A program made the translations under genes and the position numbers. From a virus (taxonomy: Duplodnaviria > Heunggongvirae > Uroviricota > Caudoviricetes): DNA of 41,053 nt. Where the stretch lies: positions 1 through 41,053 of IMG/VR virus record IMGVR_UViG_2617270962_000012; one strand, given 5' to 3'. This document shows, piece by piece, positions 38,453 through 40,677 of the stretch (its first letter is position 1; every line of letters begins with the position of its first letter). Below the pieces are notes generated by a model. That model saw only the letters and a program-made list of their open reading frames with translations, was not told where the DNA came from and ran no database searches.

Positions 38453-39550
38453 TCAAGAGGTCTTATTTCTGCTCCTTTGGAGCTCTTCAAAACGATTATG
38501 TAAAGATTTCGGATACAGTTCGGTATATACCTGCCATAGCACGTTTAATGAACGATGCCCTGTAACCTGGGCGACTTCCTCAATACTAAAACCAGCCTCA
38601 AATAAGCGACTTGCCCCTTCTCTACGCAAATCATGGTATCGCAGATCTTTAATACCTAATTTGCTTCTTACCCTCTGGAATCCCGCAGTAACAGAAGTGC
38701 TGTTATATGGAAAAATGAATTCTGATTTTTTGGGTTGTCGTTGGACGATATCCCAGGCTTCCCCAAGCAAGGCTACTTTCATATGGTTGCCTTCCTTTTT
38801 ACGTGGATCTTTCCTGTCTCTTACGAGTATGGATTTTTGTTCCTGATCGAGATCCTCCCATCGTAATCGGCATACTTCACCGATTCGCATACATGACCAC
38901 ACAGAAAATTTGAGGATATCAACGAACGGAATTTTTGAGCATTTATGTGTAGATCGTTGTTGAAGACCTTCAATGAGCATGTCCAGTTCATCAGATGCCG
39001 GTCTACGATTACGACGATTTGATTTACCAATTAAACCAAGTTTAAGTAGATATGGACGAGCGGCTTTTGCTGGGTTTGATGTGTAATTAATTCCATATAC
39101 AGGTTTGGCAGCATCCAGAACACTGCCAAGATAACTAACATCGTGGCTAACTGTAGCTGGACCTGCACCAGCGTTGTTTCTTAGCCTGCAATGTTCAATT
39201 ACGTCATTTTCTGTCAGTTCAGATAGTTTGATCGCGGAGATGTCACTATCCATAAGCAGTTCCAGCACATATCTTTTAGTACGGCCTGCTTTACCTCCGG
39301 CATTTGGGTCATTTAAATATTTGTGTAGTAAGTCACGGACTGTAAGTCCGTCAACTGCATTTGATGATGGAATGCCATATAGATCTAATTCCATCACTTT
39401 CTGTGTGCCCCATGTTTTGGCATGAGCATGTTTAGGGAATGTTTTGCTTTCCCTGTAAGTGATAACACCTTTTTCTTTGATAATCACATTACAGCGATAG
39501 CGTGGTGTGCCATCGGATTTTAGTCGTTTCTCTATGTTATAGTACGCCAT
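38453..39550 (-). CDS. tyrosine integrase (dusA-associated type)
   Basis: C-terminal catalytic R...H..LRH...Y region; adjacent to the dusA 5' end. Confidence 0.85.
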   Translation of the reverse strand: MAYYNIEKRLKSDGTPRYRCNVIIKEKGVITYRESKTFPKHAHAKTWGTQKVMELDLYGIPSSNAVDGLTVRDLLHKYLNDPNAGGKAGRTKRYVLELLMDSDISAIKLSELTENDVIEHCRLRNNAGAGPATVSHDVSYLGSVLDAAKPVYGINYTSNPAKAARPYLLKLGLIGKSNRRNRRPASDELDMLIEGLQQRSTHKCSKIPFVDILKFSVWSCMRIGEVCRLRWEDLDQEQKSILVRDRKDPRKKEGNHMKVALLGEAWDIVQRQPKKSEFIFPYNSTSVTAGFQRVRSKLGIKDLRYHDLRREGASRLFEAGFSIEEVAQVTGHRSLNVLWQVYTELYPKSLHNRFEELQRSRNKTS

Positions 39551-39651
39551 TACACGACCTCGTTATTTCGGGTTCCCATAAAACGTGGGAACCTGTGCGG
39601 GAACCTAACGCGAGAAAAATAGCCTGAAATGTTCAAAAATGCACGATAATC

Positions 39652-40677
39652 ATGAAACACAAAAAAATTAATCAAACCAGCGTGATGCCTGAAAAAACTG
39701 GTGTTTACTGGAATTCTCGGTTTAGCATTGCTCCTATGCTCGACTGGACGGACAGACATTGCCGCTATTTCTTGCGTCTGCTTTCCCGCAATACGCTGCT
39801 GTATACCGAAATGGTGACCACAGGGGCGATTATTCACGGTAAAGGTGATTACCTGGCGTACAGTGAAGAAGAACATCCGGTAGCGTTGCAACTCGGCGGT
39901 AGCGATCCGGCGGCGCTGGCGCAGTGTGCGAAGCTGGCAGAAGCGCGCGGATATGATGAGATCAACCTGAATGTCGGCTGCCCGTCTGACCGGGTGCAGA
40001 ACGGCATGTTTGGTGCGTGTCTGATGGGTAATGCGCAGCTGGTTGCCGACTGCGTGAAAGCGATGCGCGATGTGGTGTCGATTCCGGTGACGGTGAAAAC
40101 GCGTATTGGCATCGATGACCAGGACAGCTATGAATTTCTCTGCAATTTCATCAACACCGTTTCCGGCAAAGGCGAGTGTGAGATGTTCATCATCCACGCA
40201 CGTAAAGCCTGGCTTTCGGGGTTAAGCCCGAAAGAAAACCGTGAAATCCCGCCGCTCGATTATCCGCGTGTGTATCAACTGAAGCGTGACTTTCCGCATC
40301 TGACGATGTCGATTAACGGTGGCATCAAGTCGCTGGAAGAAGCTAAAGCGCATTTGCAACATATGGATGGCGTGATGGTCGGGCGCGAGGCGTATCAGAA
40401 TCCGGGTATTCTGGCGGCGGTAGACCGGGAGATCTTTGGTTCCTCGGATACCGATGCCGATCCGGTGGCGGTAGTGCGCGCCATGTATCCGTACATTGAG
40501 CGTGAACTCAGCCAGGGGACGTATCTCGGCCATATTACCCGGCATATGCTGGGCTTGTTCCAGGGTATTCCTGGCGCGCGGCAGTGGCGGCGTTATTTAA
40601 GTGAAAATGCCCATAAAGCGGGTGCTGACATTAACGTGCTGGAACACGCGCTCAAACTGGTGGCGGATAAGCGTTAA
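39652..40677 (+). CDS. dusA: tRNA-dihydrouridine synthase A
   Basis: 341 aa; '[21 protein letters not shown]' and TIM-barrel motifs; followed by pspG as in E. coli. Confidence 0.9.

Follow-up and report, generated by a model that had tools for sequence, protein, structure and literature searches.

A temperate prophage integrated in the 5′ end of dusA and a short repeat array on both arms of its attachment site

Analysis of 41,053 nt of viral DNA (IMG/VR record IMGVR_UViG_2617270962_000012; hereafter the window) revealed nearly all of a temperate prophage of ~40 kb which, we conclude with high confidence, was integrated by site-specific recombination in codons 29–31 of dusA. The right prophage boundary is the 8-bp core ATGCTCGA, located by alignment of attR, two attP, attL and attB (Table 1). 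Phage integration targeting dusA is already known biology and had been correctly recognized in an initial annotation of this sequence; the basic picture established in 2015–2021 is left unchanged. In the proposed mechanism, the integrase (Int) would exchange strands within the 8-bp overlap ATGCTCGA. Because attP bears a phage mimic of the dusA 5′ end on its int-proximal arm, the ~100 bp with which native dusA begins would end up at attL upon integration, and the phage copy (39639–39735) would be fused in frame to the remaining gene at attR, replacing the first 28 codons. Excision would need Int and a PrtN-type factor encoded at 1018–1290.

Table 1 Features of the integration module. Positions are those of the window.
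Feature	Position	Strand	Evidence or remark
dinI-like gene, immediately downstream of int	38143–38391	−	PF06183, E=4e-19
int, dusA-associated tyrosine integrase, 365 aa	38453–39550	−	Pfam PF00589 (Phage_integrase), E=1e-20
Phage-derived P arm of attR (int–dusA spacer and phage-supplied dusA′ 5′ end)	39551–39735		match to mEp460 attP
7-mer GGGAACC, inverted copy, left half of the "hairpin"	39571–39577	−	
7-mer GGGAACC, direct copy 1	39587–39593	+	
7-mer GGGAACC, direct copy 2	39599–39605	+	
dusA′, phage-supplied replacement 5′ end of dusA	39639–39735	+	usual start ATG 39639; encodes ...RFSIAPMLD (beta-1 strand)
dusA ORF	39652–40677	+	Pfam Dus, E=9e-105
attR crossover core ATGCTCGA, shared by attP, attB, attL and attR	39736–39743		attR, two attP, attL and attB aligned
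Host-derived rest of dusA	39744–40677	+	98.2% identity with K-12
Two more 7-mers (GGGAGCC, GGGAACC)	P′ arm beside attL, off window, ~−159 to −142		
rdfN-type gene (PrtN domain), probable recombination directionality factor	1018–1290	−	PF11112, E=3e-24

The int and dusA genes are divergent and their start codons lie 101 nt apart (39550 and 39652), in agreement with the ~100 bp given earlier. Alignment of dusA with the prophage-free K-12 allele, the check proposed with the initial annotation, revealed a break of identity at the core: 78 of 97 positions (80.4%) matched at 39639–39735, all eight in ATGCTCGA (39736–39743), and 917 of 934 (98.2%) downstream, and the int–dusA spacer left of ~39636 had no K-12 counterpart. 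The N-terminus is not identical to that of prophage-free alleles, which bears out the suggestion that the first codons were supplied by the phage. The core sits inside the published Citrobacter rodentium attB GCTCCCATGCTCGACTGGA and encodes Met-Leu-Asp of the conserved APMLD motif; the beta-1 motif RFSIAPMLD stays in frame and the remaining dusA ORF is intact. An in-frame ATG ORF ending in R(F/L)S(V/I/T)APMLD was present in nine of nine elements examined.

The core is present only once in the window, and neither its second copy nor a P′ arm was found there, the attL junction sequence being unmatched at up to three mismatches. attL is outside the window, ~204–211 bp left of position 1, which is why the initial annotation could not locate it. 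It was read from Escherichia coli PD7 as a proxy for the window's own genome; among the genomes of the collection PD7 alone was near-identical; it matches both flanks at 100% identity but differs by an extra IS1B (777 bp). In the PD7 attL, phage DNA comes after 105 nt of native dusA sequence (104/105 identity with K-12), and attR and attL have TCGGTTTAGC-TTGC-CC-ATGCTCGA in common. The attP of free phage mEp460 equals the left (P) arm of the window's attR plus the right (P′) arm of the PD7 attL; the window's P arm at 39551–39735 closely matches it, with few positions differing. The predicted attL of the window is placed ~200 bp left of position 1, where a native dusA 5′ fragment would be joined to TAGGATGTACCG... 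(predicted sequence ...GTTGCACCAATGCTCGATAGGATGTACCGTTTTTG...), and the excised phage would carry the attP junction ...GCTCCTATGCTCGATAGGATG....

These junctions bear on a reading of mere coincidental adjacency, in which the prophage would have entered upstream of dusA, for instance between genes or at a tRNA-like site, and left the gene intact with a native N-terminus. Similarity to K-12 dusA does start ~100 bp before the core, at 39636, and at first sight the whole gene looks host-like. However, the stretch before the core is 80% identical to K-12, against 98% past it, and closely matches a free-phage attP; the native 5′ fragment was recovered at the PD7 attL; and the integrase, which does not belong to a tRNA-targeting clade, is identical to an Int whose targeting of dusA is proven. 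The att alignment and the identity break refute coincidental adjacency, to which we assign a negligible probability.

Int is a tyrosine recombinase in which both the R-H-R-H tetrad and the nucleophilic Tyr are present (R222, H306, R309, H332 and Y342, invariant or nearly so in alignments of 6 and 40 homologues). As the initial annotation proposed, it is of the dusA type: across 364 of 365 residues it is 100% identical to Int of the Stx2dact phage 1720a-02 (KF030445). Published experiments on that phage (PMC6328086) showed insertion ~100 bp inside dusA, attP formation and excision as a circle that both depend on Int, restoration of wild-type dusA, and an in-frame phage dusA′. The present Int is also 98–99.7% identical to Int of mEp460 (JQ182728; 98.4%), Lys8385Vzw and phiSTEC1575-Stx2k, and its homologues in Salmonella (70%) and Orbus (62%) likewise adjoin a Dus gene in divergent orientation. 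The int–dinI pair is common to mEp460, Lys8385Vzw, 1720a-02 and EKP1. Phage 1720a-02 and the window share Int, int–dinI order, dusA target, in-frame dusA′ and a core inside GCTCC(C/T)ATGCTCGACTGGA, whereas the window has no stx, a contractile Mu/P2-like tail, an acyltransferase moron, ISEc20, and a dusA′ with a private A7 run; the rest of the phage differs. mEp460 resembles the window in Int, attP and the repeat array described below, but its dusA′ ORF runs from the first ATG (MHDNPEIQKTNQTS...) and its virion genes are those of a lambda-like siphovirus.

Int is a member of the family of dusA-associated integrases (DAI) described by Farrugia et al. (2015, PMC4482086), from which we found no essential difference: RHRH/Y tyrosine recombinases, encoded divergently beside dusA, with flanking semi-conserved direct att repeats that fall in the conserved part of the dusA 5′ end, attP and attB that can be reconstructed from the junctions, replacement of the 5′ end including the TIM-barrel beta-1 strand, and a prtN homologue in the element. 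Rci, the closest characterized DAI relative, is distinct from classical phage integrases (Farrugia et al., PMC4482086). The comparison sequence taken here as Rci, the IncI shufflon recombinase, was the recombinase encoded beside the PilV shufflon of an IncI plasmid; it matched Int residues 75–365 with 26% identity (E ~1e-14). The alignment is restricted to these residues, and the N-terminal domain of Int has no counterpart in Rci. Unlike Int, Rci carries a C-terminal extension and inverts DNA rather than integrating it.

An AlphaFold2 model of Int, built with proteins from the homologue search (pLDDT 85.8 overall), showed an N-terminal domain (residues 1–58, pLDDT ~90) of three strands (2–10, 16–26 and 29–38) and a helix (41–58), followed by helical and catalytic regions. 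Full-length lambda Int aligned to the entire model (364 columns), with the three regions in equal order, whereas sequence similarity to lambda Int was confined to the catalytic domain; the best PDB sequence match was XerA (E=1e-5). The N-domain is the most variable part of the protein in the homologue alignment. Low-threshold Pfam and NCBIfam searches found no named arm-binding domain at the N-terminus: Pfam gave only a weak Int_N match at residues 72–165, and NCBIfam matches to whole Int all fell within residues 206–357. A fold search with the isolated N-domain returned only weak, non-specific matches.

The rdfN-type product is, by analogy, a probable recombination directionality factor. In the circular phage its gene lies across attP from int; it is the last gene of the lambdoid early-left operon, and two genes, for a 179-aa protein and a YafO-type toxin, lie between it and attP. 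EKP1 has a PrtN-family gene directly upstream of attP, and YeP1 has at this position a small gene annotated only as hypothetical. A PrtN-type RdfN is required for excision of a dusA-specific element (PMC8409611). The Vibrio dusA-specific island IMEVchUSA3 likewise has int and rdfN on opposite sides of attP, but differs in being a mobilizable island under AcaCD control from IncC plasmids (PMC8409611).

The initial annotation had also noted a hairpin and GGGAACC direct repeats in the int–dusA spacer and suspected that they belong to the att arm. The features are present at 39571–39605, including the inverted repeat GGTTCCCA (39571–39578) and TGGGAACC (39586–39593). GGGAACC occurs at six sites in the window, with 4.4 expected over its entire length, and three of the six lie within 35 bp; thus the cluster is not due to chance. 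Together with the two 7-mers beside attL, these copies form a five-site array over both att arms. Relative to the core it occupies −131 to −165 on the int side, in an inverted–direct–direct layout that overlaps the int leader, and +44 to +61 on the far side, in a direct–direct layout. The mEp460 attP carries the same array. Across elements the positions are fixed and the 7-mer is lineage-specific (GGGAACC, GGGGTGC, GGTGTAC, GGGAGAC or GGGTGAC); the inverted copy, for example, reads GGGGTGC in YeP1, and EKP1 and the Salmonella element have GGTGTAC there. This variation at fixed positions suggests that the 7-mers are probably arm-type protein-binding sites, and the suspected place of the repeats in the att arm is upheld in that they span both arms.

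A competing explanation is that the inverted repeat GGTTCCCA/TGGGAACC works by forming a hairpin in RNA or DNA, such as an int leader structure or a terminator, instead of providing protein-binding sites. The perfect 8-bp stem lies 21–43 nt upstream of the int start, within any int leader, and YeP1, EKP1 and the Salmonella element retain the inverted pair through compensating changes. However, by folding energy the leader did not outperform shuffled sequence (z=−0.02), which led us to reject an RNA hairpin as the main explanation; moreover, no T-run follows the stem, the 7-mer also occurs as direct copies on both arms, even beyond the core, and the SMHB1, ACA1, Vibrio and Orbus elements lack the inverted copy yet have direct pairs. 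We regard the hairpin as very unlikely.

If the 7-mers are protein-binding sites, they would most likely be recognized by the small N-terminal domain of Int as putative arm-type sites, with an intasome assembled as in lambda. Lambda Int also has repeated short arm-type sites (P1, P2 and P′1–3), which flank the core on either arm at comparable distances; arm binding in the present phage is a prediction. Unlike in lambda, int sits across attP from the early operon. The protein bound by the array might instead be RdfN, the excision factor, or a bending protein of the host, since RdfN is a small DNA-binding protein that is likewise divergent among elements. This we consider rather unlikely: the motif is on both arms with a lambda-like geometry, whereas the sites of recombination directionality factors (lambda Xis and others) are normally confined to one arm, and Int has an extra variable N-domain that is missing from Rci, which needs no arm sites. 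Returning to Int as the arm-binding protein, the 7-mers may also autoregulate int, as they sit 20–55 bp upstream of its start. DAIs may be lambda-style heterobivalent enzymes in which the 7-mer co-evolves with the variable N-domain. Neither arm-type repeats nor an extra N-terminal domain is mentioned by Farrugia et al. 2015 (PMC4482086), and the word "arm" is absent from both DAI papers (PMC4482086 and PMC8409611). The covarying array offers a concrete model for assembly of the recombination complex in the DAI family.

The dusA′ segment of this variant carries a private A-run (A7, 39661–39667), a 1-nt expansion that puts the usual ATG (39639) out of frame; its frame meets TAA after 10 codons, and ATG 39652 is the in-frame start. 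The 17-residue N-terminus quoted in the initial annotation ("MKHKK...") therefore belongs to an ORF that does exist, but one that owes its existence to the A7 run. The 76-bp stretch 39625–39700 had a match in 697 E. coli genomes, of which only PD7 matched exactly, and the next-closest matches cover 75 bases; one relative read across the run (plasmid locus L016) has A6, giving a 21-residue sequence from ATG 39639. No GGAG-like Shine–Dalgarno sequence precedes ATG 39652, as had been remarked, and none precedes the native K-12 start. A simple promoter/terminator scan of 38000–40000 revealed neither a sigma-70-like promoter nor a terminator in the int–dusA spacer.

One reading of this variant is that integration and the A7 frameshift together inactivated dusA in this strain, leaving a pseudogene as annotated by PGAP, which labels the PD7 dusA "frameshifted". 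It would fit the TAA now met from the usual start and the failure to detect a Shine–Dalgarno sequence or promoter, and dusA is reportedly non-essential (Keio collection). We nevertheless judge inactivation unlikely, because the in-frame ATG 39652 and the GTG/ATG at 39682/39685 remain, the annotated start of SE15-type alleles corresponds to 39682, neither the beta-1 motif nor the remaining ORF is disrupted, and the extra A, present in one of 697 matching genomes, may be a homopolymer sequencing error. DusA function is presumably preserved after integration, and the A7 variant would likewise retain activity. IMEVchUSA3 supplies both a promoter and a new N-terminus for dusA, which is expressed from the element's promoter (PMC8409611); by analogy with this Vibrio element, the phage may supply a dusA promoter here.

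The same int–attR–dusA junction was found in 742 of 5426 complete E. coli genomes (~14%). As the integration module is this common and occurs also in Stx2-converting phages, correct att coordinates help prophage typing; they also explain why pipelines report a "frameshifted" dusA and, at the opposite prophage end, a "partial dihydrouridine synthase".

Comparison of dusA alleles revealed a sharp divergence between K-12-type and B2/SE15-type alleles at the att core. The K-12 5′ end resembles the phage copy (80% identity) and has an MH-N start as on the Yersinia, Salmonella and EKP1 elements, and B2/SE15-type alleles match native Salmonella dusA. In K-12-type E. coli, the dusA 5′ end regarded as native (MHGNSEMQKINQTSAMPEKTD...) may be a relic of a DAI-supplied 5′ end, and the allele comparison suggests that in most E. 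coli repeated phage traffic rewrote how a housekeeping gene begins. That K-12-type dusA bears such a relic and that DAIs are heterobivalent enzymes go beyond the DAI literature (PMC4482086, PMC8409611), and we give the two ideas jointly an even chance. Local alignment with shuffling left the homology of the K-12 upstream region ambiguous: a non-coding block resembles the native Salmonella promoter (equalled in score by 4 of 500 shuffles), and a block that overlaps it is similar to the YeP1 repeat array (3 of 500).

Two further candidates were rejected. The B2/SE15 core ATGCTTGA is not a barrier to the phage, as 80 genomes carry a chimeric attL in which an SE15-type 5′ end is joined to the P′ arm. 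Nor is the SE15-specific 5′ segment a phage attP arm: its matches in the phage collection were two Salmonella chromosomal contigs only, and thus the SE15-type dusA 5′ end looks ancestral.

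The initial annotation had proposed that a dusA-type tyrosine integrase acts at the 5' end of dusA and supplies a new N-terminus, and its description of divergent int and dusA ORFs with an inverted pair and direct copies of GGGAACC proved accurate. The start codons of int and dusA are 101 nt apart, pspG lies downstream of dusA as in E. coli K-12, and the prophage occupies everything left of the int-dusA interval. Alignment of the dusA 5' region with the prophage-free K-12 allele, a check suggested at that stage, revealed a break at the core ATGCTCGA, with identity rising from 80.4% before the core to 98.2% after it.

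Features of the int-dusA region and of the prophage ends and cargo
Feature	Position	Strand	Description
Between attL and rdfN, gene 1	1-540	plus	
Between attL and rdfN, gene 2	557-1015	plus	
rdfN-type gene (predicted)	1018-1290	minus	PF11112, E=3e-24
acyltransferase_3 gene	35027-36094		30% GC
ISEc20 transposase	36598-37794		IS110-family
int	38453-39550	minus	365-aa ORF; Pfam Phage_integrase catalytic domain, E=1e-20
GGTTCCCA	39571-39578		int-dusA spacer; inverted partner of TGGGAACC
TGGGAACC	39586-39593		int-dusA spacer; partner in inverted pair
GGGAACC, further copy	39599-39605		int-dusA spacer
Conserved non-coding block	39610-39650		between last 7-mer and dusA' start
dusA	39652-40677	plus	341-aa Dus-family ORF; E=9e-105
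dusA before core	39639-39735		78/97 identical to K-12 dusA
ATGCTCGA (attR core, from sequence comparison)	39736-39743		8/8 identical to K-12 dusA
dusA after core, rest of gene			917/934 identical to K-12 dusA

All 5426 complete E. coli genomes gave a match to a 701-bp probe running from int across the spacer into dusA, but only 742 matched at least 80% of its length, with the integrase attached; the other matches began at 39636 or 39727. PD7 was the only genome in this collection to match the prophage end to end (100% in two pieces, with an extra IS1B between them), and the annotation of its far prophage end includes a partial dihydrouridine synthase of 105 nt, which is identical to the K-12 5' end at 104 of 105 positions and ends ...GCACCAATGCTCGA, then TAGGATGTACCG.... 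In free phage mEp460 (JQ182728), attP reads ...GCTCCTATGCTCGATAGGATGTACCG... and joins the window left arm to the PD7 right arm; this comparison serves as an in-silico counterpart of the suggested PCR across attP. Since the identity break, the PD7 attL fragment and the mEp460 attP agree, the crossover lies in ATGCTCGA (codons M29-L30-D31 of the dusA ORF), and dusA codons 1-28 are phage DNA. Placed via PD7, the attL core is 204-211 bp left of window position 1, and a search across the window revealed no second core copy or attL; this off-window location explains why attL could not be found initially. The deposited 'circular' genome of the E. coli phage Lys8385Vzw (MT225100) contains a duplicated core (ATGCTCGAATGCTCGA, about 2300-2320), which looks like an artefact of a prophage circularised with both att copies kept.

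Int was 100% identical to that of the Stx2dact phage 1720a-02 (KF030445) and 98-99.7% identical to those of mEp460, Lys8385Vzw, phiSTEC1575-Stx2k, SKA5 and others. Phage 1720a-02 integrates 100 bp into C. rodentium dusA, with a 7-base core within a 21-bp family motif (attB on the dusA strand, GCTCCCATGCTCGACTGGA); deletion of its int abolishes attP formation, and its phage ORF PhidusA' is in frame with the remaining dusA (Balasubramanian et al., PMC6328086). The dusA-associated integrase (DAI) family, defined in >200 bacteria and related to Rci, shows semi-conserved att repeats and a replacement 5' end that keeps strand beta-1; 64% of islands carry a prtN homologue (Farrugia et al., PMC4482086). 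In Vibrio dusA islands, PrtN-type RdfN is the excision factor, Pint is constitutive, and the element gives dusA a promoter and an altered N-terminus (PMC8409611). In the circular phage, attP separates int from the rdfN-type gene of the window. Int homologues from Salmonella (70% identity) and Orbus (62%) also diverge from a neighbouring Dus gene. Int identity, published DAI work and the matching PF11112 gene thus indicate a known system that had been correctly recognised, and the supply of a new dusA N-terminus is supported by the Int identity, the identity break and attP; the added value of the present analysis is modest and consists of the covarying repeat array and the allele comparison. 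AlphaFold models Int (pLDDT 85.8) with a three-strand-plus-helix domain at its N-terminus (residues 2-58; pLDDT about 90 modelled alone), ahead of the remaining protein; sequence variation within Int is highest in this domain. Full-length lambda Int aligns over the whole model, whereas Rci lacks this domain and aligns to residues 75-365 only.

Three of the six GGGAACC sites of the window fall within 35 bp, compared with 4.4 expected for the entire 41-kb window. Alignment of the attP of mEp460, Yersinia phage YeP1 and phage EKP1 (YeP1 and EKP1 Int 67-69% identical) revealed five fixed positions holding a phage-specific 7-mer: GGGAACC, with one copy GGGAGCC, in the E. coli phages, GGGGTGC in YeP1 and GGTGTAC in EKP1; the int-side copies run inverted-direct-direct and the far-side pair direct-direct. 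The pattern recurs with GGTGTAC in a Salmonella element, an Orbus element has GGGTACC/GGGAACC, and SMHB1, ACA1 and Vibrio PE elements (about 55% identity) contain direct-repeat pairs with 11-bp spacing in both arms, without the inverted copy. The window sites are 131-165 bp to the left of the core, and in PD7 the other two are 44-61 bp to its right, a geometry resembling that of the P and P' arm sites in lambda. The int leader RNA showed no folding advantage over shuffled sequence (z=-0.02), and no T-run follows the inverted-repeat stem. The covarying 7-mers are putative arm-type sites, at which Int would bind, and where they overlap the int leader they may also serve in autoregulation of int; note that the word 'arm' is absent from the two main DAI papers (PMC4482086, PMC8409611). 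The conserved non-coding block that follows, GA(G/T)AAAG-AAAAATA...AAAATGCACGA(A/T)AAT, is common to E. coli, Yersinia, EKP1 and Salmonella elements (alignment A3, columns 64-110) and likely hosts the divergent promoters of int and of dusA', the phage-supplied dusA 5' end; a simple scan revealed no sigma-70 match.

The dusA N-terminus quoted initially is unusual and depends on a run of seven A's (39661-39667), which closes the frame of ATG 39639 after ten codons, making ATG 39652 the in-frame start. A plasmid-borne module copy (L016), the one relative whose sequence was read through the run, has six A's, in frame from ATG 39639, and mEp460 and Lys8385Vzw are one base shorter than the window here and open from the same ATG. 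As a result of this shift, PGAP labels the PD7 dusA 'frameshifted'. Because the 76-bp stretch 39625-39700 is matched exactly by PD7 only, among 697 genomes matching (the closest others span 75 bases), the extra A reflects a private mutation, or else a sequencing error in the homopolymer. Loss of DusA function in the window is conceivable but improbable; the beta-1 motif and all sequence downstream of the run are intact, and other in-frame starts, 39682/39685, correspond to the start position in SE15-type annotations.

Comparison of K-12 (L002 2869-3100), SE15 (L003 2869-3001) and Salmonella (L022 1475-1660) loci revealed two dusA 5' allele types in E. coli, diverging sharply and exactly at the att core. 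In the SE15/B2 type, zur and dusA are not separated by yjbLM, and the sequence agrees with native Salmonella dusA, also in an upstream CGTTATGCTATAGTA block. Similar to the phage-supplied copy, the K-12 type (MHGNSEMQK...) has the MH-N start seen on Yersinia, Salmonella and EKP1 elements, so this common E. coli start could be the relic of a previous DAI integration, on which the non-coding evidence is ambiguous. Both types serve as attB, since an SE15-type attL chimera occurs in 80 genomes.

The int-dinI-tail module was also found on the 205-kb APEC plasmid pEND_Eco18005 (NZ_CP126947; L016 6140-6420), and the 701-bp probe matched eight plasmid places. The phage arm on pEND_Eco18005 ends ...CTCCTATGC, adjoining a truncated ParB-family gene; this copy is a secondary-site insertion with the break inside the core. 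Elizabethkingia phage EKP1 (OM284015) carries an enterobacterial-type DAI module (Int 67% identical; dusA', dinI and prtN present), and a Salmonella element has the same 7-mer as EKP1; the host on record may deserve checking.

The early genes of the prophage are lambdoid, its head is of the HK97 type, and its contractile tail bears a Mu/P2-like baseplate; an acyltransferase moron, one ISEc20 copy and dinI are also present. The acyltransferase_3 gene, possibly an O-antigen-modifying moron, adjoins the ISEc20 transposase, with the tail fibre region on one side of the pair and dinI on the other; the extra IS1B of PD7 (777 bp), which the window lacks, is located here. Of the two genes between attL and rdfN, one encodes a protein of 179 aa that matched no family; the other encodes a YafO-type toxin (PF13957), upstream of which no YafN antitoxin could be recognised. 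The attP-adjacent position differs in related phages: a small hypothetical gene occupies it in YeP1, and the PrtN-family gene directly adjoins attP in EKP1.
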